From positions 25,635-85,677 of the forward strand of contig DBYV01000044.1 of NCBI GenBank assembly GCA_002310995.1: a stretch of 60,043 bases of DNA. The letters run 5' to 3'. Every line of letters begins with the position of its first letter. Positions within the stretch are counted from its first letter, which is position 1. Shown here one piece after another: positions 1,627-44,376 of the stretch. The notes under the pieces were generated by a model. That model had not been told where the DNA came from. It saw nothing but the letters and a program-made list of their open reading frames with translations, and did not search any database. Source of the stretch: a bacterium UBP6_UBA1177 (lineage in GTDB: Bacteria; UBP6; UBA1177). The position numbers were made by a program, and so were the translations under genes.

Positions 1627-2376
1627 ATGAACGATTTCGCAAAATTCAAAAAAATCGACGCACACTCTCACATCGGCTTTTTCGGAAGCCCGTTCAATGT
1701 CAATTTCGATGCCGGGATGCTGGAAAAACAGATGTCGGACTACAACATCGAAAAAACTATCCTCTGCCCGGCGGCGCACACGCTGAACGAGGAGCTCAAC
1801 GCCGCTTTCAAAAAGATGCCGGACAAAATAATCCCGCTCTGCTGGGTCAACGCGAATCTCGGTCAGGCGGCTTACGACATGCTTGAGCATTATCTGCGCG
1901 ACGAAAAGTTCGCCGGAGTCAAGATGCAGCCTCTTTTCGACGCTTTTACAGCCGATTCGCCTATGGTCGATCCGATAATGGAGATCGCGAAGAAATACAA
2001 TAAACCTGTCTTTATCCACTGCGGTCATCCGCCGTTCTCGCTTCCGTGGCAGATAGGTCTTTTGGCCGAGCGTCATCCCGAAGTTCCGACAGTTATGATC
2101 CACATGGGACACGGTCACGGCGTTTACATCGACGGAAGCATCACGATGGCGAAAAAGTTCGACAACCTCATGCTTGAATGTTCGGGAATGCCGATGGGCT
2201 GCCAGATCAAAAATGCCTACGAAACTGTCGGCAGCGGGCGCGTGATGTTCGGTATCGATTCGCCGTTCCACCATCCGACAGTCGAGATCCAGCGCGTCAT
2301 GTCATGCGGCCTCGGCGATTCTCAGCTTGAAGATGTTTTCTACAACAATGCCGCGAAATTTATGGGAATTAAGTAG
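1627..2376 (+). CDS. Amidohydrolase family protein (Amidohydro_2-like TIM barrel)
   Basis: IDAHSH metal motif, PVFIHCG, MIHMG, VMFGIDSP; AGGAGG RBS. Confidence 0.85.
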   Translation: MNDFAKFKKIDAHSHIGFFGSPFNVNFDAGMLEKQMSDYNIEKTILCPAAHTLNEELNAAFKKMPDKIIPLCWVNANLGQAAYDMLEHYLRDEKFAGVKMQPLFDAFTADSPMVDPIMEIAKKYNKPVFIHCGHPPFSLPWQIGLLAERHPEVPTVMIHMGHGHGVYIDGSITMAKKFDNLMLECSGMPMGCQIKNAYETVGSGRVMFGIDSPFHHPTVEIQRVMSCGLGDSQLEDVFYNNAAKFMGIK

Positions 2377-3248: not shown

Positions 3249-4502
3249 ATGGATAACAACTATTTTGTAGATTCAAAAAAACTTTCAAAAGAGGCTCTTG
3301 CGAAAAAGCACGAGCTTGAGACAAATCCGGCGTCACGCGCCGATATAATGGAATATCTTCCGGGAATGGAAAAGATCGATTCCGACATTTCCGCGAAAGT
3401 TCTTGCCGAAGTCGATTCTTACGATCCCGATTCATACACAGCGGCAGATGTTAGACGCGCTCTTGACCACACAAACCGCACAGTCGAAGACTTGAAGGCT
3501 CTTCTTTCACCCGCGGCCGACAGATTTCTTGACGAGGCGGCACATCTTGCCTCAATCGAAACACAGAACCACTTCGGTAACACGGTTTACTTCTTTACGC
3601 CGCTATATATCGCAAATTACTGCGAAAATTACTGCGTTTACTGCGGTTTCAACTGCTACAACGATATCCGCCGCATGAAACTCGACATGGAGCAGATAGA
3701 GCACGAAATGAAGATAATCGCCGAGAGCGGAATGGAGGAAGTGCTCATCCTGACAGGCGAAAGCAGGTCAATGAGCAGCCTCGAATACATCGGTGAAGCG
3801 TGCAGGCTGGCACGGAAATATTTCAGGATGGTCGGCGTCGAAGTTTATCCGCTGAATGTCGATGAATACAAGTATCTCCACGAATGCGGAGTCGATTACG
3901 TCACCGTTTTTCAGGAGACTTACGACAAAGTGCGCTTCGAAAAGCTCCATCTCAGAGGTCACAAAAGGGTCTGGCCGTACCGCTTCGATTCGCAGGAAAG
4001 GGCGCTAATGGGCGGAATGAGGGGAGTCGCGTTCGCAGCTCTGCTAGGGCTTTCCGATTTCAGAAAAGACGCTCTGGCGACGGCACTTCACGCATATTTC
4101 ATCCAGAGAAACTATCCTCAGGCAGAAATTTCACTTTCGTGCCCGCGTCTCAGACCTATCATCAACAACGAAAAGATAAATCCGCTCGACGTTCACGAAA
4201 GACAGCTCTGCCAGATACTCTGCGCATACAGGCTTTTCCTGCCGTTTGCCGGGATCACCGTTTCGTCGCGTGAAAGCAAATCCTTCAGAAACGGCATCGT
4301 GAAGATCGCAGCGACCAAAATCTCGGCCGGAGTTTCGACCGGAATCGGCGACCACGAAAGCAAATACACCGGAAAAAGCGCTGAAACAGCCGAAGGCGAC
4401 GAACAGTTCGAGATCAACGACAGCCGCAGCCTCGAAAAAATGTATGAAGACATGTCGGAAGAGGGGATGCAGCCGGTTCTAAACGATTATATCTACCTGT
4501 AA
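3249..4502 (+). CDS. thiH: 2-iminoacetate synthase ThiH (radical SAM)
   Basis: FFTPLYIANYCENYCVYCGF (CxxxCxxC), VFQETY, KISAGVSTGIG; follows thiG. Confidence 0.95.
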   Translation: MDNNYFVDSKKLSKEALAKKHELETNPASRADIMEYLPGMEKIDSDISAKVLAEVDSYDPDSYTAADVRRALDHTNRTVEDLKALLSPAADRFLDEAAHLASIETQNHFGNTVYFFTPLYIANYCENYCVYCGFNCYNDIRRMKLDMEQIEHEMKIIAESGMEEVLILTGESRSMSSLEYIGEACRLARKYFRMVGVEVYPLNVDEYKYLHECGVDYVTVFQETYDKVRFEKLHLRGHKRVWPYRFDSQERALMGGMRGVAFAALLGLSDFRKDALATALHAYFIQRNYPQAEISLSCPRLRPIINNEKINPLDVHERQLCQILCAYRLFLPFAGITVSSRESKSFRNGIVKIAATKISAGVSTGIGDHESKYTGKSAETAEGDEQFEINDSRSLEKMYEDMSEEGMQPVLNDYIYL

Positions 4503-4516
4503 ATCATGAGACGTTT

Positions 4517-6454
4517 CTACGGAACGGGCTGATTTTCCGAATTTTTCTCAAGTTCGATACTTTTTTCTTCCCATTTTTCCATGAGTTCAAGAAGTTCATC
4601 CTCGATTTTGCCGAGTCTTGAGGCAAGTACAGGATCGAATGACGTGGAAATTTTGTCGCAGATCTCCTGCTTTTCCTTTTCTAATGAATCTATTTTATCC
4701 TGAAGAGTTTCGATTTCTTTTTTCAGTTTATTCATACGGTTACGGATTTCTTTCTGCTGGGCGAAGTCGATTTTTCCTTTGACTTCTTCAGTTTTGGGAG
4801 CGGCTGTTTTCGGTTTTTCCGTCGCAGTTTCTTCTGAAATCGTTTCGTGACCGTACATATCGAGATATTCGCTGTAGCTCCCTTCGAAATTGAAGATGTC
4901 ACCGCGTTTCCGGAAGTAGACTATCGAAGTCGCGAGGGAATTGATGAAGTGGGAATCGTGTGAAACAAAGATGATCGTTGCCGGAATGCTTTTCAAAGTG
5001 CTTAGAAGGATCTCTTTCGAATCGATGTCGAGGTGTGTCGTGGGCTCGTCGAGAAGGAGAAGGTTGCCCGGAATCATTATGAATTTGATGAAGGCGAGGC
5101 GCACTTTCTCTCCGCCGCTGAGAACCGCGATTTTTTTGTCCCAGTCGTCTTCGAAAAAGAGGAAACAGCTCAAAATATTTTTGATTTTTGTCATCATTTC
5201 AAAAGGAGCGATCGATTCGACAAATCCCTGGACTGTCATGTCGGCAGGAAGTTTCGAGATCTCGTGCTGCCTGAAGTAGCAGATATCGATTCCGGCGCCG
5301 ATTTTGCATATTCCTGCAGTCGGCTGAAGTTCCTGGCCGATGATATTGAGAAGTGTCGATTTGCCGAAACCGTTTCTTCCGACGAGGGCGATCCTTTCGC
5401 CGCGGCGCACGATCCTTTTGTAGTTTGAAATGACTTCCAAATCACCGAATTTATGGGTTATGCCGCTTAGTTCCGCAACGATTTCGCCTCCGCGCTTGGG
5501 TTCGGGAAGGCGGAAAGTCATGGTCGGAGCCTTCTGGGGCAGAACGATGAGCTCGCTTTTGAGTTTTTCCAGCATTTTCAGCTTCGACTGCGCAAGGGCT
5601 GCGTGAGCCGCGTTCGTGTGGTTTTTGTCGTAGTAATCCTGCAGGTCCCTGATCTCAACAAGCTGTTTCTCGCGCTGCTTTTCCAAAAGTGCGATCTTCG
5701 CTTCTCTTTCCTTGAGGTAAAAATCGTAGTTTCCCTTGTAGATCGTAATTTCGCCGTTAAAAATTTCCCAGGTCTCTTCCGCGACATCGTTGAGAAAATC
5801 CCTGTCGTGCGAAACGAGAAGGACCTGCCCGTCAAACCTTTTGAGCCAGCCGGCAAGGAAGTCGATCGTGACGATATCGAGATAGTTTGTGGGCTCGTCA
5901 AGCATGATGATGTCGGGTTCTTTGACAAGAACGCGGGCAAGGGCGATCCTCATCTGCCAGCCGCCGCTCATAGTTGAAGCCGGTTTTTCCCATTCGCTTC
6001 TTTCGAAACCAAGGTTGAGAAGAATATTTTCGACAGAGTTTTTCTGCTTTGCCTTAACTTCAAGTCTGTGAATTTCTTCAATAATTTCGTTAAGCCGGAT
6101 GAGCAGTTTCTCGTCAGGTTCTTTCGATGAATCGATCTTTTCGATTATAGCAGCCTGTTCCGAGTGGAGCGATTCAAGTCTGCTTGAATCAAGTCCTGCC
6201 GCTACTTCTTCAAAAACCGTCCCTTTGAAATGGTAGACCGCCTGTTGCGGCAGATATTCGATGACGGCATTCTTTTTGAAAGTTATTTCGCCCGAATCGC
6301 AGTATTCCGCACCCGAAATTATCTTCATCAGAGTCGATTTGCCCGATCCGTTTTTACCGACAAGAGCCGTTATGTGCTTCGAAAGCGGAAGACTTACGTT
6401 GTCGAGGATCGTCTGACCTGAAAACTGTTTTGAAATCCCTTTAAGTAAAAGCAT
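4517..6454 (-). CDS. ABC-F family ATP-binding protein
   Basis: Two ABC domains (GKNGSGKST...MSGGW...LDEPTN; GRNGFGKST...LSGGE...LDEPTT), no transmembrane segments, C-terminal coiled coil. Confidence 0.93.
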   Translation of the reverse strand: MLLLKGISKQFSGQTILDNVSLPLSKHITALVGKNGSGKSTLMKIISGAEYCDSGEITFKKNAVIEYLPQQAVYHFKGTVFEEVAAGLDSSRLESLHSEQAAIIEKIDSSKEPDEKLLIRLNEIIEEIHRLEVKAKQKNSVENILLNLGFERSEWEKPASTMSGGWQMRIALARVLVKEPDIIMLDEPTNYLDIVTIDFLAGWLKRFDGQVLLVSHDRDFLNDVAEETWEIFNGEITIYKGNYDFYLKEREAKIALLEKQREKQLVEIRDLQDYYDKNHTNAAHAALAQSKLKMLEKLKSELIVLPQKAPTMTFRLPEPKRGGEIVAELSGITHKFGDLEVISNYKRIVRRGERIALVGRNGFGKSTLLNIIGQELQPTAGICKIGAGIDICYFRQHEISKLPADMTVQGFVESIAPFEMMTKIKNILSCFLFFEDDWDKKIAVLSGGEKVRLAFIKFIMIPGNLLLLDEPTTHLDIDSKEILLSTLKSIPATIIFVSHDSHFINSLATSIVYFRKRGDIFNFEGSYSEYLDMYGHETISEETATEKPKTAAPKTEEVKGKIDFAQQKEIRNRMNKLKKEIETLQDKIDSLEKEKQEICDKISTSFDPVLASRLGKIEDELLELMEKWEEKSIELEKNSENQPVP

Positions 6455-20620: not shown

Positions 20621-22996
20621 ATGAGTTCTGAAAATTTTATGATGACAGAGATTCCGGCGACTTTACCTGTTTTTGTGCTTAGAGAAGGGGTTCTTTTCCC
20701 CTTCATGCTGATGGGAATTGCGGCTCCTAACGAAAAAATTTTTGCAAATCTTCTGCGTGCCGCCGAATCGACCGGAAATTATATCGTAGTTGTTGCCGAA
20801 AAGAGGCCGACTGATGACAAAAGTATGCTTCCTAGAATTGTAAGCATGGAAAATATTTACTCAATCGGAACGGTGGCTGCGGTTGTAAGAGAAAATGGCG
20901 GAGAAACCGGACGCGGCAATATTCTCCTTAAAGGTTTGAAGAAAGTCGCTGTAAAAGGGGTCCTTTTCAATCCTGTTTTTGACATGAGTTTCGCGAGAGT
21001 CGAAGTCGTCGAAGAGAACAATTTCCTCGATGCGAAAGATGAACAGCTTCTCCGTAGCGCCGTTATTGATACGCGGGAGCTTTTCAACGCGATAGGTTCG
21101 CTTAACGCCTTTCCTCCTGCGGTTGTCAAAGAATTCAAAAATATCAATGATCCCACAAGGTTAGCCGAGTTTGTTGCTTCCAATTTCCTGCGTAATACCG
21201 GAGAGCTTCAGAAAGTTCTGGAAGAAAATTCACCGCTTAAAAAGCTGAATATGGTTCATAAAGCGCTTGAAGACGCGCTTGCTTTCATGCAGGTGAAAAA
21301 CGATATTAAACGCAAAACGATGGCGCGGCTCGACAAAGGGCAGAAAGATATGATTCTGCGCGAGCAGATGAAGCAGATCCAGAGCGAACTCGGGGAAAGT
21401 GACCCGTTTTCTGCAAGTATTCAGGATTACGAGAAAAAATTGGCTCAGAACATTCTGCCGGAATACGCCGCGACCGAAGTAAAAAAGCAGGTTGAGAGGC
21501 TTAAGAGCATGAGTCCTTTTTCGCAGGATTCATCGATGCTTTCATCGTGGATCGACTCTGTTTTCGACCTGCCGTGGAAAGATTCGACAGAGGACAACAA
21601 GGATATAAACGAGGCCGAAAAGGTTCTTCAGGCTGATCATTACGGGCTTGAAGACGTCAAAGAAAGGATTTTGGAGTTTCTGGCGGTGCGTCAGATAAAA
21701 GGCGACCAGAATTCGAAATCTCCGATTCTATGCTTCGTGGGGCCTCCCGGAGTCGGCAAGACTTCGCTCGGAAAGTCGATCGCGCGCGCTTTGAAACGCA
21801 AATTCTACCGTCTGAGTCTCGGAGGCTTGCATGACGAAGCCGAGATCCGTGGTCACAGGCGGACTTATGTAGGCGCGATGCAGGGAAAGATCCTGAAAGG
21901 GCTCACTACATGCAAGTCGAATAACCCTGTTTTCATGCTCGACGAAATCGACAAACTGGGAAAGGATTTCCGCGGAGATCCTTCGTCGGCGCTCCTTGAA
22001 GTGCTTGATCCCGAGCAGAATTTCTCGTTCCTTGACAATTATATCGGTCTTCCGTTCGACCTCAGCAAAGTCTTTTTCATCGCGACGGCGAACTGGGAAG
22101 ATACGATTCCGGAACCTTTAAAAGACAGAATGGAAATCATCCGTCTTTCCGGCTATACTGACATGGAACGTATTGAAATCGCTAAGAAATATCTGATTCC
22201 GCGTCAGCTTGAAAACAACGGTCTCGCACCTAAAGAGATCCAGTTCACAAAAGAGGCGCTTCTTTTCATTTCGAGAAGATACACCCGTGAAGCGGGAGTC
22301 AGAAACTTTGAAAGGTGCATCGGCTCGATCTGCCGCAAAACTGTCACTCTCAAAGTGCAGAAAAAGGATTTCGCGAAGAAGATCACACCGAAAGTTGTCG
22401 AGCAGTATCTCAAGCTTCCTCCTTTTTCGGAACACGATTTCGACGAGGAAAAGAGGGTAGGAGTCATTACCGGACTTGCATGGACGCAGTATGGCGGCGC
22501 GACACTCAAAATCGAAGCGAATTCGATGAAAGGAAGCGGAAACCTGCTTCTCACCGGAAAACTTGGCGAAGTCATGCAGGAATCGGCTCGCATCGCGCTT
22601 TCATTCATCCGCAGCAACGCGGCTAAATTCGGTCTTGGCGGCGATTTCACGATAAGCGACAAGGATATCCACATCCACTTCCCGGCAGGAGCTACACCGA
22701 AAGACGGACCGAGTGCCGGCATCGCGATAACTTCGGCACTTCTCAGCCTGTTTTTAGGCAAGGCGATCGATTCAAAAATCGCGATGACAGGAGAGATCAG
22801 CCTCACCGGCGAAGTCCTTCCGATCGGCGGCCTCAAAGAAAAACTTCTCGCCGCGAAACGCAACGAAGTTACCAAAGTCCTTATTCCGGAGCAGAACAGA
22901 GCCCTTTACGGCAGCATCGAAGACGAGATAAAATCGGGCATCGAAGTCGTTTTCGTCAAGGAATACAGCGACGTTTTCAAAGTTTTGTTCGGGTAG
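20621..22996 (+). CDS. lon: Lon protease (endopeptidase La)
   Basis: N-terminal LON domain, GPPGVGKTS, catalytic PKDGPSAG Ser and downstream Lys (KLLAAKR). Confidence 0.96.
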   Translation: MSSENFMMTEIPATLPVFVLREGVLFPFMLMGIAAPNEKIFANLLRAAESTGNYIVVVAEKRPTDDKSMLPRIVSMENIYSIGTVAAVVRENGGETGRGNILLKGLKKVAVKGVLFNPVFDMSFARVEVVEENNFLDAKDEQLLRSAVIDTRELFNAIGSLNAFPPAVVKEFKNINDPTRLAEFVASNFLRNTGELQKVLEENSPLKKLNMVHKALEDALAFMQVKNDIKRKTMARLDKGQKDMILREQMKQIQSELGESDPFSASIQDYEKKLAQNILPEYAATEVKKQVERLKSMSPFSQDSSMLSSWIDSVFDLPWKDSTEDNKDINEAEKVLQADHYGLEDVKERILEFLAVRQIKGDQNSKSPILCFVGPPGVGKTSLGKSIARALKRKFYRLSLGGLHDEAEIRGHRRTYVGAMQGKILKGLTTCKSNNPVFMLDEIDKLGKDFRGDPSSALLEVLDPEQNFSFLDNYIGLPFDLSKVFFIATANWEDTIPEPLKDRMEIIRLSGYTDMERIEIAKKYLIPRQLENNGLAPKEIQFTKEALLFISRRYTREAGVRNFERCIGSICRKTVTLKVQKKDFAKKITPKVVEQYLKLPPFSEHDFDEEKRVGVITGLAWTQYGGATLKIEANSMKGSGNLLLTGKLGEVMQESARIALSFIRSNAAKFGLGGDFTISDKDIHIHFPAGATPKDGPSAGIAITSALLSLFLGKAIDSKIAMTGEISLTGEVLPIGGLKEKLLAAKRNEVTKVLIPEQNRALYGSIEDEIKSGIEVVFVKEYSDVFKVLFG

Positions 22997-36445: not shown

Positions 36446-37372
36446 ATGAATTGTTTGGCAGATAGCATATTCAGCTGTTTTAAAAATCAGCCTGAATTTA
36501 CATTGAAATCAGCTTATGAACAGTATTCAGACAAACCAAAAGAAACTGTCAGAGCTAGAATTTATGATAATTTAGGTGTTAAATTTGAGCGCGTTGCAAA
36601 AGGCCTTTATCGCACGATACAAGGAGAAGAAACCTGTGTCGTTATTGAGGGCGACGGACGAGATTTGTCTATGTTTAAAGATAAATCTATTGATTGTATT
36701 TTGACAGATCATCCATGGTTGGATTTGAAATCAAATAAAGGCGGAGACAGAGCTTTCGCGGAATACGAATGCTTTGAATATACACTTAAAGATTTTGAAG
36801 AAAAAAGCAGAATCTTAAAAGATGGTTGTTTTCTTGTTGAAATACTTCCTGCTGAAAATGAAAATAATTACAAGTACTTATACAAAATCAAAGAATATGC
36901 TGAAAAAGCAGGATTGTTTTATTATGCTAAAGTAACATGGAAAAAAGGTGACTTTGTCAGCAATACTGGTAGAAAAGCAAAGAACTCGCAGGATGTAATG
37001 TTCTTTTCCAAAGGTAAAGCTAGAAATATGCGGTTGGATGTAAAGAAAACTCAGAAATTAGGATATGATTGCTATATGAGCGGAACTTTGAAGATGTTGC
37101 CTACAATGTTTGATATTCCGCCAGTTTCCAAAAAGGATAAAATACATCAAAGCGAATTGCCTCTGACACTATGTGAAGAAATTTTGCGATATATTACTTA
37201 TCAAGGAGAGATAGTACTTGATTCTTTTGCTGGGAGCGGAGTTGTCGGAGAAGCCGCTTTGAATTTGAAGAGAAATTGCATTTTAATAGAAATTGCTAAG
37301 GAAAATATCAAAAAAATACAAAAAAGATTTTCGGAAAATATAAATTTCAGGGAAGATTTAGCGTTTTTATAA
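36446..37372 (+). CDS. Site-specific DNA methyltransferase (N6/N4, beta class) with N-terminal wHTH-like extension
   Basis: Motif IV variant ILTDHPW precedes motif I VLDSFAGSG; HQSELP. Confidence 0.85.
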   Translation: MNCLADSIFSCFKNQPEFTLKSAYEQYSDKPKETVRARIYDNLGVKFERVAKGLYRTIQGEETCVVIEGDGRDLSMFKDKSIDCILTDHPWLDLKSNKGGDRAFAEYECFEYTLKDFEEKSRILKDGCFLVEILPAENENNYKYLYKIKEYAEKAGLFYYAKVTWKKGDFVSNTGRKAKNSQDVMFFSKGKARNMRLDVKKTQKLGYDCYMSGTLKMLPTMFDIPPVSKKDKIHQSELPLTLCEEILRYITYQGEIVLDSFAGSGVVGEAALNLKRNCILIEIAKENIKKIQKRFSENINFREDLAFL

Positions 37373-37382
37373 AGGTGACAAA

Positions 37383-38138
37383 ATGAAAAAAATGACCCAA
37401 GCCGAAGCAGTAGTGCAAACATTAGAACGCTTAGGTGGAATTGCAACTTTAGGACAACTGAATCAGGAAGTTTTTTGTATTGAAGATTGTGAATGGAAAA
37501 CGAAAACGCCGTTTGCTTCAATAAGAAGAATTGTCCAAACAGATAATCGAATTTATAAAATTAAACCAGGACTTTGGGCATTGAAAACATATCGAAAACA
37601 GCTTGAACAACGCGGAATAATTACAGAAAATGAATTAAATCAAAACTCAACAGAAGTGCAGGAATTCAATCATTCATACTATCAGGGTTTGTTACTTTCA
37701 ATAGGAAATATTAAGGGATTGGGAACTTATGCACCGAATCAAGACAAAAATAAAAGTTTTGCTAACGGAAAAATAGATGATTTGCGTTCCATTCAATCAA
37801 TTCCTGCTTTTTCTTACGAGCAGCTTGTAAAAAGAAGTTCTACAATTGATGTTATCTGGTTTAATGAAAGAACAATGCCAGATTCTTTTTTTGAGGTTGA
37901 ACATTCAACGGATATTACGAATTCACTGCAAAAATATAATGATTTGCAGGATTTTCATACTAAGATGTATATCGTGGCAGATAAAAGAAGAGAGGAGGAA
38001 TTCTGGAACAAATTTGCTTATGCTTCTTTTGAGAAATTGAAAAGTGAAAATCGTGTGAAATTTTTAAGTTATGGAGAGTTGGACGATCAATATCAACAAG
38101 CTGTTAAACTTCAGTCTATAAATACTGTTATATTATGA
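37383..38138 (+). CDS. Putative PD-(D/E)xK-type nuclease with N-terminal wHTH (restriction-like)
   Basis: KTKTPFASIRRIVQ HTH-like region; IDVIW...FFEVEHS acidic active-site-like motif; sits among methyltransferase genes. Confidence 0.55.
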   Translation: MKKMTQAEAVVQTLERLGGIATLGQLNQEVFCIEDCEWKTKTPFASIRRIVQTDNRIYKIKPGLWALKTYRKQLEQRGIITENELNQNSTEVQEFNHSYYQGLLLSIGNIKGLGTYAPNQDKNKSFANGKIDDLRSIQSIPAFSYEQLVKRSSTIDVIWFNERTMPDSFFEVEHSTDITNSLQKYNDLQDFHTKMYIVADKRREEEFWNKFAYASFEKLKSENRVKFLSYGELDDQYQQAVKLQSINTVIL

Positions 38139-38590
38139 TTTCCTGCAAATTTTTTACTCATTCAACGGAATTTCTTTTGTGGGCGAGAAAAAGTAAGAAA
38201 GTATCGCATTATTATAATTATGAGTTGATGAAAGAAATCAACGGCGGAACGCAGATGCGGGATTTATGGACTCTTCCTGCTATTGCAAGATGGGAAAAAT
38301 TGTGCGGAAAGCATCCGACACAAAAGCCGTTGCCGTTGCTTGCTCGTATAATTCTTGCTTCAACGCATGAAAACGAATGGATTTTAGACCCGTTTACAGG
38401 CTCAAGCACAACAGGAATCGCGGCAAGCCTGCTTGGTCGTAAATTTGTAGGAATCGACAAGGAAAAAGAATATGTCGAACTCTCAAAAAGGCGCAGAATC
38501 GAGATCGAAGATCCTGCTAAAAGAGAGGAGTATCGCAACAGAATCGCACGATATAACAATCAACCTTTGTTAGAAATCCAAGAAATATAA
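38135..38590 (+). pseudogene. 3' half of a DpnA-type (beta class) methyltransferase
   Basis: ISCKFFTHSTE, GKHPTQKP, ILDPFTGSSTTG present; the N-terminal DPPY half is missing. Confidence 0.8.
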
Positions 38591-38778: not shown

Positions 38779-39669
38779 ATGAGTAGCATAGTTTTGGAAC
38801 TCCAAAGAGAGGTGATAAGGGAAGGCTGCGATGTTTTAAATCTTCTAAGAAAAGCACATGTTATTGCTGCAAAACTCAACTTGGAAAAATTCGATAAGTG
38901 GGTTTTGTCAGAGTTAAATGGCTATAAAAACAAAGATTCCATACCAGAATATCGTTCTATAAACGGATCTTTAAAGGGATGGAATCCTTATCATGGTTGG
39001 CTTACGGTTACGTTGTTAGATAAAAGTTTGGAAAAAGTGCTTTGTACAAAAAAAGAAGGAGAATCTCTTGGGGCTTTAATTGAACTTGAAAAAAAATCTG
39101 ACGGCTTTTTTTTGATTTATTTCAATGCCGAATTGAACTCGATAGTAAATTCTTTACGTGAATTCCCTCTACCAACGCGATACTCGTTGCATTGTAGTTC
39201 ACATCAAATAAAATCAATAGTCGAACATGTGAAGAATACTATATTGGAATGGACAATTAGACTTGAAACGGAAGGAATATTGGGGGAAGAAATGCAATTT
39301 AATTCTGAAGAAAAAGAGTCAGCAAAACGGATTACTCAGACGATAAATATTTATGGTAGTGCAAATGTTATCAATGGTGATGCCCCAAACTCTGCAATTG
39401 TTGCTGGAAACGAAAATACAGTCACATATACTTCAAAAGTGCTGAATGCTGTTTCCGAAATTGAATCGTCCTTGAATAACGAAGATATTTCATCCGAAGA
39501 TAAAGAAACAGCAATTGAAATGATCGCAGACATCAAGGAAAAAGTATCGCAGGAGAAAAAGTCGAGTATTTTGAGATCTGCATTTATAGGTTTGTTAGAT
39601 TTCGTAAGTGGAGTAGGCGCCAGTCTTACTGCCGCGCTAATTCAATCGAAAATACAGGGATTGTTCTGA
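38779..39669 (+). CDS. AbiTii-domain protein
   Basis: IVLELQ...LLRKAHVIAAKL...WVLSELNGY...PEYRSI...NPYHGW resembles the AbiTii domain; hydrophobic C-terminal helix. Confidence 0.75.
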   Translation: MSSIVLELQREVIREGCDVLNLLRKAHVIAAKLNLEKFDKWVLSELNGYKNKDSIPEYRSINGSLKGWNPYHGWLTVTLLDKSLEKVLCTKKEGESLGALIELEKKSDGFFLIYFNAELNSIVNSLREFPLPTRYSLHCSSHQIKSIVEHVKNTILEWTIRLETEGILGEEMQFNSEEKESAKRITQTINIYGSANVINGDAPNSAIVAGNENTVTYTSKVLNAVSEIESSLNNEDISSEDKETAIEMIADIKEKVSQEKKSSILRSAFIGLLDFVSGVGASLTAALIQSKIQGLF

Positions 39670-39691
39670 GATATTACAGAGGTGTACTGCT

Positions 39692-40624
39692 ATGGCACGA
39701 AAGAAAGTTGAAACAATAGTCAAAGATAAAATAAAACCTTTTTTACTTAAAGACAAGGACAGTGACTTTTTGGATCAGTTATCTCGGCAATATTCTTATA
39801 GATTGCTTGTAAACAGCATTGATGAGGCTACAAAATATCTTGAATATGATGAGAATGGGCAAGTAATCGAAGCGTCAATACAACGATTCTTAAAAAAAAT
39901 CGATAGCATCGCTCATAATAAATCTCTTCCGCTAATTGAGCAAAAGATTGTTCATATAGATAATAAGGGAAAAAAATATATTATGGAGTGGGACTCGCAA
40001 GAAGCTTGTGTTTTGTTACAGGCTTGTGTCAAGGGATTGAAGTCATTAAGATGGTCAAACGAAAGAATAGTAAAAGAATTTCTAGAGGAAACTTTGACCG
40101 AGACGAGAAATGTAGAGTGGTCTACATGGTTCAAAAAAATTAAAAAATTTAATAATAAGATTAAGAAGTCGATAAAAAACGATAATAGAACTATCAAGCA
40201 ATCCGGAACGATTTTACCAGAAGGACTTTTTGTGGAACTGCCACATAATTTTGGTTCTATTTGTAAACAAATCAATGCAAGTTACGAAAATCATCTTTAC
40301 GATTGCACGGCAGTAATGATGCGCCATTTACTAGAAATTTTGCTAGTTTTATCTTATCAAAAAGCTAACATTGAGAATGAAATAATGGCCAGTGATGGAA
40401 AACATCATGTTCCGCTTGACTCTATGATAAAAAATGCAGTTAATAATTCAAAATTAGCTCTCTCGTTAAGCACAAAAAACGACATGAGACATTTTAAAGA
40501 TTTGGGTAATTATTCTGCACATAAAATTTGGTATAGCTGCACTAAAGGAGATTTAGAACCTCATATACTTAAATATCGAGCTATTATTGAAGAACTCTTT
40601 TATAAATCTGGGATTAAAAAATAA
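39692..40624 (+). CDS. Unknown N-terminal domain + DUF4145/HEPN-like C-terminal domain
   Basis: QINASYENHLYDCTAVMMRHLLE...LGNYSAH is typical of DUF4145. Confidence 0.65.
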   Translation: MARKKVETIVKDKIKPFLLKDKDSDFLDQLSRQYSYRLLVNSIDEATKYLEYDENGQVIEASIQRFLKKIDSIAHNKSLPLIEQKIVHIDNKGKKYIMEWDSQEACVLLQACVKGLKSLRWSNERIVKEFLEETLTETRNVEWSTWFKKIKKFNNKIKKSIKNDNRTIKQSGTILPEGLFVELPHNFGSICKQINASYENHLYDCTAVMMRHLLEILLVLSYQKANIENEIMASDGKHHVPLDSMIKNAVNNSKLALSLSTKNDMRHFKDLGNYSAHKIWYSCTKGDLEPHILKYRAIIEELFYKSGIKK

Positions 40625-40650
40625 GTTCTGGAACAAACCCAACAATCCCA

Positions 40651-40750
40651 CTCATTGAAATCAAATTCTGCGAAAGTCGAGTCCTTGAAGTTGAGCAATA
40701 AACACTTGAATTTATTTGGATATCCGTTTAAGGTCGAAATTTTTGACCTT
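40651..40750. repeat. About 100-bp degenerate direct repeat, left copy (decayed AlbA_2 mini-ORF plus palindrome)
   Basis: Ungapped alignment to 42731-42830 gives 73/100 identities by manual count. Confidence 0.85.
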
Positions 40751-40780
40751 AGACGAAGACCTATTTTTTTCTGATTTCGC

Positions 40781-40860
40781 GAGACGTTTCAGGAAACGCC
40801 TCTACCGATTTTAGGCGCCCCTGATTTCAGGGGAGCTGCCGCAAGCGGCTGAGGGGTCTG
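40781..40860. repeat. REP-like composite element (GTAG-type hairpin plus double hairpin)
   Basis: GAGACGTTTC-AG-GAAACGCCTC-TAC; CCCCTGA-TT-TCAGGGG; GCCGC-AA-GCGGC. Confidence 0.75.
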
Positions 40861-40985
40861 TAAGGATTGCAAATCCGCAGACAAAAATTCCAAAATAATC
40901 TTAAAATAAAAAACAAAAAATAATTTGACTTTCTTGATAAATACATAAATTTTGCTGAGATTGTTTGGAAACGGAGCCCAACCCG

Positions 40986-41099
40986 ATGACCCCACTCAAT
41001 AAACTCAAATCCGGCGAGAGCCGAACCCTTGAATTTAAGCGGGAACTGCCGCAGAATGCGGGAAAGAGGGGGAACGGCGATAATTTGGAGGAAATATAA
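40986..41099 (+). pseudogene. 37-aa mini-ORF encoding an AlbA_2 N-terminal fragment
   Basis: MTPLNKLKSGESRTLEFKRELPQNA...; the stop abuts the ATG at 41100. Confidence 0.7.
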
Positions 41100-42725
41100 A
41101 TGAATCTCGATATCAATCAAAAGTTGGACGAACTTCTTTCGATGAAATATGAAACTGAGACCGTTGAATTTAAAGAAGCTAAAGAGACTTTTGCTTTTGA
41201 TGATCTCGGAAAATATTTTTCAGCTTTGAGCAATGAAGCGAACCTTCACAATGAAAAATATGCATGGCTCGTTTTTGGTGTTGAAGACAAAAAACACAAT
41301 ATTGTCGGGACAAATTACAAAAATGATGACAAGTCTTTGCTGGCTCTGAAAGAGGAAATGGGAAAGCAGACTACAGGAAATTTAACTTTTGTCGAAATAT
41401 ATACTTGCCTTAGAAAAGCCAAAAATAACGAGGAAAAACGAGTTCTTGTTTTCCAAATTCCGGCTGCTCCGTGCGGAATGCCGGTTGCATTCAAAAGAAT
41501 GTATTACGGGCGTGACGGCGAGGCTCTTGTCGGGCTGAGTATCGAAAAAATCGAGAGGATCCGCGCCCAGAATGTTACGAATGACTGGAGTGCGCAGATC
41601 ATTCCAAACGCTACGTTCGAGCATCTTTCAAAAGAGGCGATTTCGCTTGCGCGGAAAATGTATGCCGAAAAGAATCCTCATCTTGCTTCTGATATTGAGC
41701 GTTGGAGCGATTCGACTTTTTTGAATAATGCACGGCTTACACGCGAAGGCAAGATCACCAATACGACGATCCTGCTTTTGGGAAAGCCAGAATCGGCAGA
41801 TTTGATTATTCCGGCTATCAGTCAAATTACCTGGATTCTGAAAGACCGTGACGGCATGGTAAGGGATTATGAACATTTTTACTGCCCGCTCATTGTTTCG
41901 GCAGAGAAAGTTCAGGCAAAAATACGAAATCTAACATCCCGTTACATGACCGGCGATTCGATTTTTCCGAAAGAAACTTTGCAGTACGATCCTTACATTA
42001 TCCGCGAGGCGTTGAACAACGCTATCGCTCATCAGGATTATTCAAAAGCGGGAAGAATCACCGTTCAGGAGCACGAAGACGACTATCTGATTTTCTGCAA
42101 CTGCGGCGATTTTATTCCGGGAAGCATAAAAAATGTTTTGAAAGCTGAATATTCTGCGAGCAATTACCGCAATCCGTTTCTTGCGACTGCAATGGTCAAT
42201 CTGAACATGATCGACACTGTCGGAAGCGGTATCCTGAAAATGTTCCTTGCTCAGAAAAAGAGATGTTTTCCTTTGCCCGATTACGATTTTTCAAATCACG
42301 AAGTACGCATGAAACTTTATGGCAAAATCCTGGATATAAACTATACCAGGCGGCTCCTGAATGAAGATTTGCCGCTTTCTGAAGTCTTCGAATTGGATAG
42401 AAAACAGAAAGAAGAATTCATTTCGCATAGAAACGATCCTGTAAAAGAACAAGTAAAGGAACAAGTAAATGTCCAAGAAAATGTCCAAGAAAATGTCCAA
42501 GAAAAAGGAGTAAATGTCCAAGAAAATGTCCAAGAAAAAACTCGAGAAGAAATGATACTAAATCTTTTGCAGAACAATAATACAATCTCGATACGAGAAC
42601 TTGCAGAGCAATTAAATATGACTGCAAAAACGATTCAGCGAGATTTAGATAAATTAAAGTCACAAAACCTTATCCGCCGCATAGGTCCGAACAAAGGCGG
42701 TCACTGGGAGGTGATTAAAAAATGA
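41100..42725 (+). CDS. Schlafen/AlbA_2 domain + HATPase_c_4 (RecG C-terminal-like) + HTH protein
   Basis: ETVEFKEA...SALSNEA...LVFGVED; IREALNNAIAHQDY; RNPFLA; GSG; C-terminal DeoR-like HTH ending GGHWEV. Confidence 0.88.
   Translation: MNLDINQKLDELLSMKYETETVEFKEAKETFAFDDLGKYFSALSNEANLHNEKYAWLVFGVEDKKHNIVGTNYKNDDKSLLALKEEMGKQTTGNLTFVEIYTCLRKAKNNEEKRVLVFQIPAAPCGMPVAFKRMYYGRDGEALVGLSIEKIERIRAQNVTNDWSAQIIPNATFEHLSKEAISLARKMYAEKNPHLASDIERWSDSTFLNNARLTREGKITNTTILLLGKPESADLIIPAISQITWILKDRDGMVRDYEHFYCPLIVSAEKVQAKIRNLTSRYMTGDSIFPKETLQYDPYIIREALNNAIAHQDYSKAGRITVQEHEDDYLIFCNCGDFIPGSIKNVLKAEYSASNYRNPFLATAMVNLNMIDTVGSGILKMFLAQKKRCFPLPDYDFSNHEVRMKLYGKILDINYTRRLLNEDLPLSEVFELDRKQKEEFISHRNDPVKEQVKEQVNVQENVQENVQEKGVNVQENVQEKTREEMILNLLQNNNTISIRELAEQLNMTAKTIQRDLDKLKSQNLIRRIGPNKGGHWEVIKK
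42441..42540 (+). repeat. Intragenic 12-nt tandem repeat (VQEN/VKEQ)
   Basis: gtccaagaaaat units encoding VKEQVKEQVNVQENVQENVQEKGVNVQENVQEK. Confidence 0.95.
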
Positions 42726-42781
42726 CCTTACTCGATGAAATCAAATCCGGCGAAAGCCAAACTCTCGAATTTAAACAGTAA
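42722..42781 (+). pseudogene. 19-aa mini-ORF encoding an AlbA_2 N-terminal fragment
   Basis: MTLLDEIKSGESQTLEFKQ*; ATGA overlap with the upstream stop. Confidence 0.75.
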
Positions 42782-42830
42782 CCATCTGAATTTATTTGAA
42801 AATCCGTTCGAGGTGCAATTTTTGCACCTC
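42731..42830. repeat. About 100-bp degenerate direct repeat, right copy
   Basis: Colinear with 40651-40750; contains the palindrome CGAGGTGCAA-T-TTTGCACCTCG. Confidence 0.85.
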
Positions 42831-42903
42831 GATGCAATCAATCTGACCAGCGCAAGATAACTCACCAAAATAATTCCCATTTACGTTCAAAAGCATAGAT
42901 GTT

Positions 42904-43060
42904 TCTACCGCTTCTTGCCTCCCATGAAGTAGGAGAGGTGTCACGCAGTGACGGAGAGGTCTGAGATGTTTCTACCGCTTCTTGCCTCCACTGAGTTTAG
43001 GTGTTTTTACCGATTCTCGGCTCCCCTGAAGTAGGGGAGCTGCCGAAGGCTGAGGGGTCT
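42904..43060. repeat. Cluster of three REP-like double-hairpin units (one partial)
   Basis: Units start t(c/t)taccg at about 42904, 42970 and 43006; CTCCCC-N7-GGGGAG, GTCAC-GCA-GTGAC, GCC-GAA-GGC. Confidence 0.8.
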
Positions 43061-43118: not shown

Positions 43119-43161
43119 CTCGCGTCATTTTTTTGTTTTTTATAAATTTTTGGAGGCTATT

Positions 43162-44376
43162 ATGACTACAAGACTTGAAAACGCTCTTAACAATCATGTC
43201 AACGAGCTCAAAGCAAAAGGAACGGCTAAAGGCGACGAAATGGTCATCACCAAAATTCTCCCGCCCGAAGGCGCAAACGGCCCGCGTTATGTCGTTGAAG
43301 GTTATGAACAGAAGTTTATCAAAATGAATTCAAACAGTTACCTCGGTCTTTCAATGAGAAAGGAAGTCATCGAAGCAGAGGAAGAGGGAACGAAAAACTT
43401 TGGTGTCGGTCCCGGTGCTGTCCGCTTCATTTCCGGAACCCACAAGGCTCACATCGACCTTGAAAAAAGACTCGCGAAGTTCCACGGCAGAGAATCGGCA
43501 ATGCTTTTCTCAAGCGCTTACGTCACTTCGATGGGCGTTATTTTCCCGCTTATCACCAATGAAACAGTCATCATCAGCGACGAGCTCAACCACAACTGCA
43601 TCATCAACGCGATGAAACTTTCCCGTCCGGCACTCAAACTTATATACAAACACAACAGCATGGAAGACCTTGAAGCAAAACTTCAGGAAGCTGTAGGCAA
43701 AGGCAAAAGATGCATCGTCGTAACAGACGGCGTTTTCTCGATGAGAGGCGACTTCTGCCCGTTCGACAAATTCACGGCGATCTGCAGGAAATACAACGAC
43801 AAATTCGAAGAAGGCGTAACGACTGTTGCTGACGATTCCCACGGTGTAGGCGCTTACGGCAAGACCGGAAGAGGAACAGAGGAAGTTACCGGCGCGAAAG
43901 TCGACATCCTTATCGGCACGCTCGGAAAATCATACGGCGTAAACGGCGGATACGTTGTCGCATCCAAAGCAGTAACCGAATTCTTGAGACAGACCGCTCC
44001 GATGTATATCTACTCGAACCCGATCACGGTCGGCGAAGCTTACGCAGTTCTCAAAGTTCTCGACATCCTTGAAAGCGAAGAAGGCATCAAACGCCTTGCA
44101 CACCTTGCAGAAATCACAGCAAGATTCGAAAAAGGACTCGTTGACAACGGCTTCGAGACGATCGCAGGTCCGCACCCCGTAACTCCGCTCATGGTCAGAG
44201 ACACCAAAAAGACGGCAGACATCGTTGCATGGCTCACGAAGAACGGCGTCCTCGCAACGGCTATGAACTACCCGGTAGTTCCGAAAGGCGACGAAGAGAT
44301 CCGTTTCCAGATCAACGCGGACCACACCGCAGCCGATATCGACTACGTAATCAACGTTCTGAAATCATTTAAATAA
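43162..44376 (+). CDS. PLP-dependent alpha-oxoamine synthase (Kbl/BioF family)
   Basis: NSYLGL, SDELNHNCII, DGVFSMRGD, DDSHG, GTLGK (PLP Lys); GGAGG RBS before ATG 43162. Confidence 0.9.
   Translation: MTTRLENALNNHVNELKAKGTAKGDEMVITKILPPEGANGPRYVVEGYEQKFIKMNSNSYLGLSMRKEVIEAEEEGTKNFGVGPGAVRFISGTHKAHIDLEKRLAKFHGRESAMLFSSAYVTSMGVIFPLITNETVIISDELNHNCIINAMKLSRPALKLIYKHNSMEDLEAKLQEAVGKGKRCIVVTDGVFSMRGDFCPFDKFTAICRKYNDKFEEGVTTVADDSHGVGAYGKTGRGTEEVTGAKVDILIGTLGKSYGVNGGYVVASKAVTEFLRQTAPMYIYSNPITVGEAYAVLKVLDILESEEGIKRLAHLAEITARFEKGLVDNGFETIAGPHPVTPLMVRDTKKTADIVAWLTKNGVLATAMNYPVVPKGDEEIRFQINADHTAADIDYVINVLKSFK
44335..44376. repeat. 42-bp direct repeat, left copy (3' end of the Kbl/BioF gene)
   Basis: gatatcgactacgtaatcaacgttctgaaatcatttaaataa; 39/42 identical to 45581-45622. 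Confidence 0.97.

Follow-up and report, generated by a model that had tools for sequence, protein, structure and literature searches.

In the genome of the bacterium UBP6_UBA1177, a gene for a 541-amino-acid (541-aa) AlbA_2 protein is led and flanked by short sequences that resemble the start of another AlbA_2 gene, which raises the question of what these gene starts are and why they should surround an intact gene. The locus lies in a stretch of 60,043 nucleotides of contig DBYV01000044.1 (assembly GCA_002310995.1), referred to here as the window. A reading made from the sequence alone (the sequence-only reading) had proposed either a repeated landing-pad module through which defence-type genes are exchanged or translationally coupled leader and trailer peptides that regulate the gene. 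Our analysis compares the genome of the window (G000) with its relatives in a genus set of 15 genomes and a family set of 23 genomes. We hold with moderate confidence that the gene starts are scars of recombination at the 5′ ends of AlbA_2 genes, which now act as portable homology and as a ready-made expression adaptor.

Gene-start stubs and their source gene

Three AlbA_2 N-terminal fragments lie where the sequence-only reading had placed them. Fragment 1 (PLIEIKFCESRVLEVEQ and a stop, 40648-40701) lacks an ATG and carries ATC in its position. Fragments 2 and 3 are coextensive with units 2 and 3 of Table 1. The former (MTPLNKLKSGESRTLEFKRELPQNAGKRGNGDNLEEI and a stop) comprises 37 codons and its TAA directly touches the ATG of the main gene at 41100, and the latter (MTLLDEIKSGESQTLEFKQ and a stop) comprises 19 codons, whose ATG and the TGA that ends the 541-aa gene overlap as ATGA. 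A repeat search of the window recovered the outer copies as a 100-nt ungapped direct repeat (40650-40749 and 42730-42829) with 74% identity and a spacing of 2080, in agreement with the alignment described previously, and also returned a 61-nt family with three copies. The TAA stops of units 1 and 3 are likewise 2080 nt apart and hence at the same offset. The likeness of the two units is not due to chance, because their match has an E value of 1e-12 in a search of the whole 2.3-Mb genome.

The mini-open reading frames (mini-ORFs) are recognisable as 5′ stubs of a real gene, here named albL, whose 472-aa AlbA_2-HATPase_c_4-wHTH product is conserved in the genus. The assignment follows from the fact that one type of stub sequence, the L type (MTLLDEIK...), opens intact AlbA_2 genes confirmed by Pfam. 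Intact albL is present in four sister genomes (G002, G004, G012 and G013), opens with ATGACCTTACTCGATGAAAT.AAATCCGGCGAGAGCCGAAC and has a product starting MTLLDEIKSGESRTLEFKQELPQDARKWVKTIVAFANGAGGKF. Its Pfam scores are 90.2 bits for AlbA_2 and 85 bits for HATPase_c_4, and L-type stubs share 89-92% DNA identity with the start of the intact 472-aa genes. A 44-aa ORF searched alone had no Pfam match. L-type sequence is thus found as stubs and as intact gene starts. The P type (M(P/T)PLNKLK...) occurs as stubs and leaders only, and among the copies inspected none was an intact P-type AlbA_2 gene from which these stubs could have come.

Unit 3 is a downstream gene natively coupled through ATGA to the upstream AlbA_2 gene and truncated after codon 19 by a boundary element, which in this case reads TAACCATCTGAATTTATTTGAAAATCCGTT plus a hairpin. 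Two metagenome contigs, L114 and L119, have the same ...EVIKK stop/ATGA junction with an intact albL behind it, and L115 matches the end of the window's gene together with unit 3 and its hairpin at 98% identity. Unit 1 is an older paralogue of the same composite of codon-19 stub and boundary element, closing the module formed by the AbiTii gene and the adjoining 310-aa HEPN-like gene. Its orthologue in G010 follows the same 310-aa gene (98% protein identity), and different DNA follows there. Identities of only 83% between unit 1 and the G010 copy, 77% between unit 3 and the G010 copy and 72% between units 1 and 3 indicate that the codon-19 composite is old and paralogous. In a second composite the stub breaks off at about codon 13 and leads into TGAACCTCAAAAACCTGC and a GC-rich hairpin. 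This composite is found downstream of different genes in G003, G004, G009, G013 and G014, the gene ahead of it in G009 being a homologue of the 310-aa gene. Both composites recur with identical junctions at several loci.

Since unit 1 closes the AbiTii-HEPN module and unit 3 closes the module of the 541-aa gene, the bracket around this gene consists of the ends of two neighbouring modules or arrays. We rejected a target-site duplication or a pair of att sites as the origin of the outer repeats: the copies are 72-74% identical and the orthologue of unit 1 in G010 has no 541-aa gene next to it. No recombinase is encoded between or beside the outer repeats. An 'empty site' upstream of kbl was sought in relatives and given up, since the neighbourhood has been rearranged too heavily in the genus for such a site to be defined.

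One leader unit ahead of different genes

To count the unit, we used a search pattern that needs stub codons 4-11 and judged its matches individually. In this census 26 units were judged true, in 11 of the 15 genus genomes, and they comprise four intact gene starts, 12 leader units and 10 truncated terminal stubs. A metagenome scan added 12 further units from rumen-type samples. Among the 23 family genomes the units are confined to the genus, the single outside match spanning only the promoter part of the query. The search across the genome and its relatives that the sequence-only reading had called for therefore locates the unit in contig C38 of the same genome, in sister genomes and in rumen metagenomes. 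That reading had named, as the outcome that would speak against it, a unit found nowhere else with relatives showing only decaying paralogues; instead, at least eight defence-type genes adjoin mosaic units.

A full leader unit consists of a first ribosome site (ACGGAGC..), an ATG, up to about 27 albL-like codons and an adapter of about 35 nt (..GGAACGGCGATAATTTGGAGGTAAGATAGATG) that holds a second ribosome site and abuts the ATG of the next gene. By reading, the consensus adapter has a stop in each of the three frames. The at least eight different genes directly behind such a unit include five AlbA_2 types, two YhcG nucleases and a 350-aa HUH-DprA-like protein (Table 1). Units of this kind join defence-island genes into short, operon-like arrays. 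In contig C20 of G001 the array runs promoter, unit, AlbA_495, unit, YhcG_396, cut unit and dnaK. The array in contig C5 of G012 begins after a restriction-modification (RM) system and runs promoter, albL, short linker, YhcG_343, short linker, the 350-aa HUH gene, short linker, stub and the boundary element B1. The short linker is a 35-nt sequence (ATGACCACCATGAATGCTTGGAGGAAATATAAATG) preceded by the same first ribosome site and occurs in 12 copies in seven genomes. Promoter and stub are retained directly ahead of the HUH gene in contig C38 of the window's genome and in G010. Truncated units close arrays, and the settings of the arrays are unrelated: arrays lie behind two different RM systems or a DUF1566 gene, and ahead of kbl or dnaK.

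Units ahead of the same cargo differ. Those in contig C38 and in G010 are identical at 25 of 37 positions in their first part and at 70 of 73 in the rest, and on such comparisons the units read as mosaics. Unrelated cargo genes have their first codons in common (ATGAATAAAGA), which places the junctions just inside the cargo ORFs. The order of genes also varies, with albL followed by YhcG_343, AlbA_541 after YhcG_343 yet before albL, and AlbA_495 and YhcG_396 before albL. No single linear ancestor can give rise to all these orders. Deletion is plainly also at work in the arrays: YhcG_343 is followed in four genomes by remnants of AlbA_541 (residues 435-456), and internally deleted copies of albL and of AlbA_473 are present too.

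Plain neutral decay, in which random deletions erode one ancestral tandem array of AlbA_2 paralogues and neighbouring genes and leave stubs without any role, even as recombination substrates, would explain the many gene-body remnants such as those of AlbA_541 and the internally deleted AlbA_473, as well as the neutral evolution of the stub peptide (see below) and the loss of the ATG of unit 1. It does not account for one leader unit before at least eight different genes in orders that do not derive from one linear ancestor, for arrays at unrelated chromosomal sites, for mosaic units or for identical composites downstream of different genes, and we consider it very unlikely. What stands of the landing-pad proposal is a recurring unit tied, as a pattern, to gene exchange; the outer copies themselves are neither insertion sites nor a duplicated target.

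The region upstream of kbl, which starts at position 43150 of the window, is a variable hotspot in the genus, as seen in the 14 sister genomes (loci L143-L154 and L057). It holds a type II CRISPR-Cas9 locus in G007, an HUH-like gene in G009, an AlbA_2 gene in G005, a toxin-antitoxin pair in G004, a gene for a UvrA-like 1520-aa protein in four genomes and, in G003, a 541-type remnant with a stub and B1.

Table 1. Features of the array in the window, loci of the promoter-like block in the genome of the window and genes found directly behind units. Coordinates without a contig or locus name refer to the window.
Feature	Location	Strand	Remark
Unit 1, degenerate albL ribosome-site region and 5′ stub	40637-40701	+	cut at codon 19, TAA 40699-40701
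Boundary element, putative B1 variant (TGAATTTATTTGGATATCCGTTT), and hairpin TAAGGTC-N9-GACCTTA (40729-40751)	40705-40751	+	
B2 block (AGACGAAGACCTATTTTTTTCTGATTTCGCG), REP hairpin GAGACGTTTCAGGAAACGCCTCTAC (40781-40805) and second REP-like element (40803-40860)	40751-40860	+	
Putative promoter and 5′ untranslated region block of albL-type arrays	40870-40985	+	A-rich upstream part, TTGACT 40925-40930, GGAG 40973-40976
Unit 2, leader unit, P/L-mosaic stub with 27 albL-like codons and adapter AGGGGGAACGGCGATAATTTGGAGGAAATATAA	40986-41099	+	second ribosome site in adapter
Cargo gene, 541-aa AlbA_2 (Schlafen-type) + HATPase_c_4 + wHTH	41100-42725	+	Pfam
Unit 3, first 19 codons of downstream albL, then TAA	42722-42781	+	ATGA overlap with cargo stop
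Boundary element variant (CCATCTGAATTTATTTGAAAATCCGTT) and hairpin CGAGGTGC-N7-GCACCTCG (42809-42831)	42782-42831	+	
Canonical B1 (42857-42888), then three REP-like copies	42857-43060	+	island end before kbl
Promoter-like block	window 40870-40960		
Promoter-like block	C8 ~21367-21419		
Promoter-like block	C22 11100-11152		
Promoter-like block	C38 50322-50374		
Promoter-like block	C46 ~2039-2091		
Promoter-like block	C57 4162-4214		
350-aa protein gene	G000 C38, L028 5100-6152	-	homologues in G010 (L056 5323-6375) and G012 C5
Cargo behind unit: AlbA_541	window		
Cargo behind unit: AlbA_495	G001, L111		
Cargo behind unit: albL	G002, G013, L107		
Cargo behind unit: AlbA_473	G005, G012		broken in G012
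Cargo behind unit: AlbA_2 gene starting 'MTENEV'	L113, L117		
Cargo behind unit: YhcG/DUF1016 nucleases	G001, L107, G004, L112, L118		two subfamilies (YhcG_396, YhcG_343)
Cargo behind unit: 350-aa HUH-DprA-like protein	G000 C38, G010, G004		

The array in the window stands between the AbiTii and 310-aa genes upstream and kbl (43150-44376) downstream. The block at 40870-40985 would be the promoter driving the 541-aa gene, and GGAG within it is the first ribosome site; the same block stands before intact albL in contig C5 of G012 and before other arrays. A simple sigma-70 scan did not call a promoter there. The 541-aa protein scores 46.2 bits for SLFN_AlbA_2 (cut-off 25.3), 38.7 bits for HATPase_c_4 (cut-off 26) and 39.4 bits for HTH_DeoR. 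It has homologues of 46-91% identity in many phyla, and the closest named records for its gene are metagenome-assembled genomes (MAGs) of rumen Treponema sp. The linker between its HATPase_c_4 and wHTH domains is encoded by 12-nt tandem repeats (42440-42563) that specify (K/N)(E/V)Q(V/E). Other repeats occupy the same position in homologues, namely VKEQ in G003, IGDKSAIN in albL and SSEK in AlbA_473, and the albL repeat DNA (CGGCGATAA) turns up in some adapters too.

Further upstream, the window (38779-40624) was compared with G010 (L049 reverse complement, 4152-6014). The AbiTii proteins are 62% identical and the adjoining 310-aa proteins 98% identical, which indicates a recombination breakpoint between the two genes. 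At 36446-38590 of the window lie a gene for a 308-aa N6_N4 DNA methylase, a 251-aa ORF of no known family and a 151-aa ORF. For the last of these, the match to the same methylase profile is confined to its C-terminal half (positions 90-220), and the ORF is probably a truncated second methylase.

Leader function, boundary hairpins and candidate recombinases

If the stub encoded a functional leader peptide, as the second proposal of the sequence-only reading had it, its codons should bear the mark of selection. Substitutions at codon positions 1, 2 and 3 number 14, 9 and 6 (26 codons, 12 P-type copies). Because they do not favour third positions, the stub peptide is free of purifying selection, and we rejected a functional leader peptide on this codon-position test. 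A 1-nt indel causes the adapter to be read in two frames among the copies. Leader RNA is no better folded than its shuffles (minimum free energy z = +0.40), and its consensus fold leaves the second ribosome site and the ATG unpaired and has no covariation support (term +0.66). Rfam returned nothing at gathering score, its three weak sub-threshold matches being to eukaryotic families. An RNA switch or known RNA family was rejected on these grounds, and the proposal of regulatory leader and trailer peptides finds little support in the substitution pattern, the frame shifts of the adapter or the fold of the leader.

A related explanation does not depend on the peptide. The leader unit could be a selected bicistronic translational coupler that gives any incoming gene reliable initiation: ribosomes would initiate at the first ribosome site and its ATG, translate the stub and terminate on reaching the cargo ATG or shortly before it, and the repeats would persist for this reason, with recombination secondary. 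An ATG and an open frame of 30-40 codons are retained in 13 of 15 leader units, with the frame closing 0-19 nt short of the cargo ATG or in an 8-nt overlap with it, but a stub recently derived from a real gene would have an open frame by default. The two other leader units, one with a premature stop and one that has lost its ATG, both retain the remaining unit sequence. Even the 35-nt short linker keeps the first ribosome site and ATG, and in five of its 12 copies the stop of the 11-codon ORF overlaps the start of the cargo as ATGA; in several other short linkers, however, the ORF runs 13-85 nt into the cargo. Sequence features of a bicistronic coupler are thus present in 13 of 15 leader units and five of 12 short linkers. 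The stop in every frame of the consensus adapter fits a coupler, as does a layout like that of engineered bicistronic designs (PMC8601185) and known coupling by upstream ORFs (uORFs; PMC13285730). The unconserved peptide, the differing adapter frame and a leader fold that leaves nothing to unmask do not, and we regard selection for coupling as an unlikely cause of the repeats.

Beyond the stubs, both outer copies run on into TGAATTTATTTG..ATCCGTT and then a palindrome whose pairing is kept despite sequence change, TAAGGTC/GACCTTA behind unit 1 and CGAGGTGC/GCACCTCG behind unit 3. This had been noted previously, as had the repetitive extragenic palindromic (REP)-like hairpins that follow; REP-like elements are indeed present on both sides. 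In the genome we counted 31 copies of the REP hairpin GAGACGTTTCAGGAAACGCCTCTAC (at most four mismatches), 12 of B1 and five of B2. Judged by eye, the element at 40705-40751 is likely akin to the genome-wide B1 (about 56% identity, matching ends). After TCCGTT(C), ten members share an 8-bp stem and an AT-rich loop and are 96% paired, with stems as varied as GGTC/GACC, GGTGC/GCACC, GGTCAC/GTGACC, GATTCC/GGAATC and others. The covariation check suggested by the sequence-only reading gave a clear result: five of eight stem pairs are altered on both sides, none of 500 shuffles reaches the covariation score and slid controls collapse, for ten hairpin-bearing members chosen by eye from 34 variants. 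Most other B1 copies have a REP element in the position of the hairpin. Intrinsic terminators were considered at the palindromes and rejected, since a simple scan called no terminator-like site on the + strand and the T-run lies about 15 nt past the stem. The boundary hairpins seem to behave like parts of REPs or bacterial interspersed mosaic elements (BIMEs). The REP family reads GAGACGTTTCAGGAAACG(C/T)CTCTAC; in reverse complement it opens with GTAG and continues into a hairpin with a 9-bp stem, as classical enterobacterial REPs do.

A promoter-like block (..GCAGACAAAAATTC..TTAAAATAAAAATCTAAAAATAATTTGACTTT) is found at six loci of the genome of the window, ahead of different defence-type genes and often preceded by B1, hairpin, B2 and REP. 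The genes behind it include the 350-aa gene, a RhuM-like gene after hsdM/hsdS (C57), a YhcG nuclease (C46) and an Abi_2-like gene (C8). In G010 (L049 reverse complement, ~6230-6400), and upstream of an AlbA_541 homologue in L160, a promoter-like sequence, a structured segment and a hairpin-plus-T-run terminator lie between boundary elements and contain no ORF. These segments may be small RNAs or relics.

The 350-aa cargo protein matches no Pfam domain, scores 23.4 bits against REP_Tyr_transpos of NCBIfam (cut-off 80) and gave no meaningful match in a sequence search of the PDB. Its AlphaFold2 model (mean predicted local distance difference test score, pLDDT, 79) suggests an N-terminal domain like IS200/IS605 TnpA and the REP-associated tyrosine transposases (RAYTs) and a DprA-like C-terminal domain. 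The model matches IS200/IS605 TnpA and RAYT 4er8 with template-modelling (TM) scores on the target of 0.46-0.66, and its best PDB fold match is ShosA of the Shosta defence system. In the family alignment the HUH and Y..NP motifs of the N-terminal domain are invariant. The family has more than 3,300 homologues, with 60-75% identity in MAGs of Prevotella and Paludibacteraceae, and the source names visible among 120 homologues listed all read 'hypothetical'.

Such a protein, or an integron-like enzyme, might be a dedicated recombinase that acts in trans on the units, the boundary hairpins or both. Hairpins after TCCGTT that keep their pairing through compensatory changes, as folded single-strand sites would, are consistent with this, as are the abundant GTAG REP elements (31 copies), a cargo protein combining an IS200/IS605-TnpA/RAYT-like fold and an HUH motif with a DprA/ShosA-like C-terminal domain, the recurrence of the codon-19 and codon-13 composites with identical junctions at several loci, and the known integrons of Treponema (PMC3607928). 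The hairpins, however, stand at array ends only and not at every cassette junction. Junctions are fuzzy, in that stub lengths vary and identity reaches into the first cargo codons, and the units are mosaic, as homologous exchange predicts. The HUH-DprA family is widespread in Bacteroidota, where the units are not seen. In all 15 genomes the best match to the integron integrase IntI (TIGR02249) stays at about 80 bits, short of the cut-off of 265; the model also picks up ordinary tyrosine recombinases, and all 14 control genomes give the same sub-threshold result. The matches listed for the genome of the window fall on C35, C29 and C47, all of them contigs other than the one that holds the window. 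By inspection the units between cassettes are gene-start stubs, not imperfect palindromes, and have no attC-type cores. An integron was rejected for want of IntI at cut-off and of attC-like units, and we judge a dedicated recombinase of either kind very improbable.

Proposed recombination through gene starts and its relation to known systems

We return to the reading of the stubs as recombination scars that provide homology and expression signals. RecA-type crossover or gene conversion after DNA uptake could use the linkers as homology, and slippage could occur between linkers that form direct repeats. Through any of these events cassettes would be deleted, duplicated or swapped, each incoming gene would end up behind an existing promoter and ribosome site, and no dedicated integrase would be needed for the swapping or deletion of genes. 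The identity, layout, recurrence and mosaicism of the stubs and their truncation at array ends, like the lack of constraint on their peptide, are read directly from the sequences; this mechanism and any benefit to expression are inferred.

Several points weigh against this reading. The evidence is wholly comparative, coming from species-level representatives and a few metagenome contigs, with no recombination event directly observed. Much of the pattern could stem from successive deletions of larger ancestral arrays, given the many internal gene remnants. The shared 3′ core of the linker measures about 18-27 nt, which is marginal for RecA. The clustering of breakpoints inside the unit is partly an ascertainment effect of a pattern that needs codons 4-11.

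Closest in logic, by analogy, are the orphan cdiA-CT/cdiI and rhs-CT modules, in which retained pieces of a conserved gene make homologous redeployment possible (PMC4927057). There, too, variable modules stand in tandem, each behind a retained fragment homologous to the expressed copy, and these fragments are taken to record past displacement, like fossils, and to supply homology for the recombination by which modules are redeployed. The fragment in our arrays is instead the 5′ end of an AlbA_2 gene (ribosome site, ATG and at most 27 codons) and not an internal or 3′ core, the cargo consists of whole unrelated defence-island genes with their own starts and not of in-frame toxin tips, and recombination is deduced from sequence comparison (mosaic units and array variants at shared flanks). 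Minimal mobile elements and hotspots of transformable bacteria such as Neisseria (PMC3787668, PMC1797815) also appear close, in that turnover proceeds by homologous recombination with no element-encoded recombinase. Their homology, however, lies in flanking core genes, whereas here it would lie in a portable linker with a ribosome site.

Other likenesses are partial. Integrons, including the chromosomal integrons of Treponema (PMC3607928), share a head promoter, single-gene cassettes in the same orientation, a repeated separator and a cassette content that varies among close relatives; the present arrays differ in having no IntI, repeats that are gene-start stubs instead of attC hairpins, and variable junctions in place of a fixed core. 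REP/BIME elements and their RAYTs (Y1 HUH enzymes) are matched by the structure-conserved hairpins, the GTAG-type REP with its 31 copies and a cargo protein of RAYT-like fold. The elements here mark array ends only, the AlbA_2 stubs are not REPs, and the HUH protein has a DprA/ShosA-like domain in addition and, at 23 bits, falls far short of the RAYT cut-off of 80. With bicistronic couplers and uORF coupling (PMC8601185, PMC13285730) the leader unit shares two ribosome sites, a short ORF and a stop by the main ATG, but the likeness is one of sequence form only: neither the frame nor the place of the stop is constant, and no RNA structure would require coupling.

A bolder version of recombination through gene starts would be an integrase-free cassette system for defence genes, in which the linker of about 45-130 nt is selected both as recombination joint and as bicistronic expression adaptor, and the HUH(Y1)-DprA-like protein and the boundary hairpins possibly move arrays via single-strand processing. 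This we think improbable. Recombination-driven cassette arrays are already known; what is new here is that the joint would be a gene-start stub carrying a ribosome site and that the cargo consists of defence-island genes.

The bracketed gene of the window carries a lesson for other loci, because direct repeats on both sides of a gene can be two array ends and not an insertion signature, which bears on the other bracketed modules of the window. Within the genus the linker could serve as a beacon: an ORF behind it is a candidate defence-island gene, as in the case of the widespread HUH-DprA-like family. More broadly, the arrays suggest a route for the turnover of defence genes without an integrase or transposase in cis, in which short stubs carry both the homology and the ribosome site.

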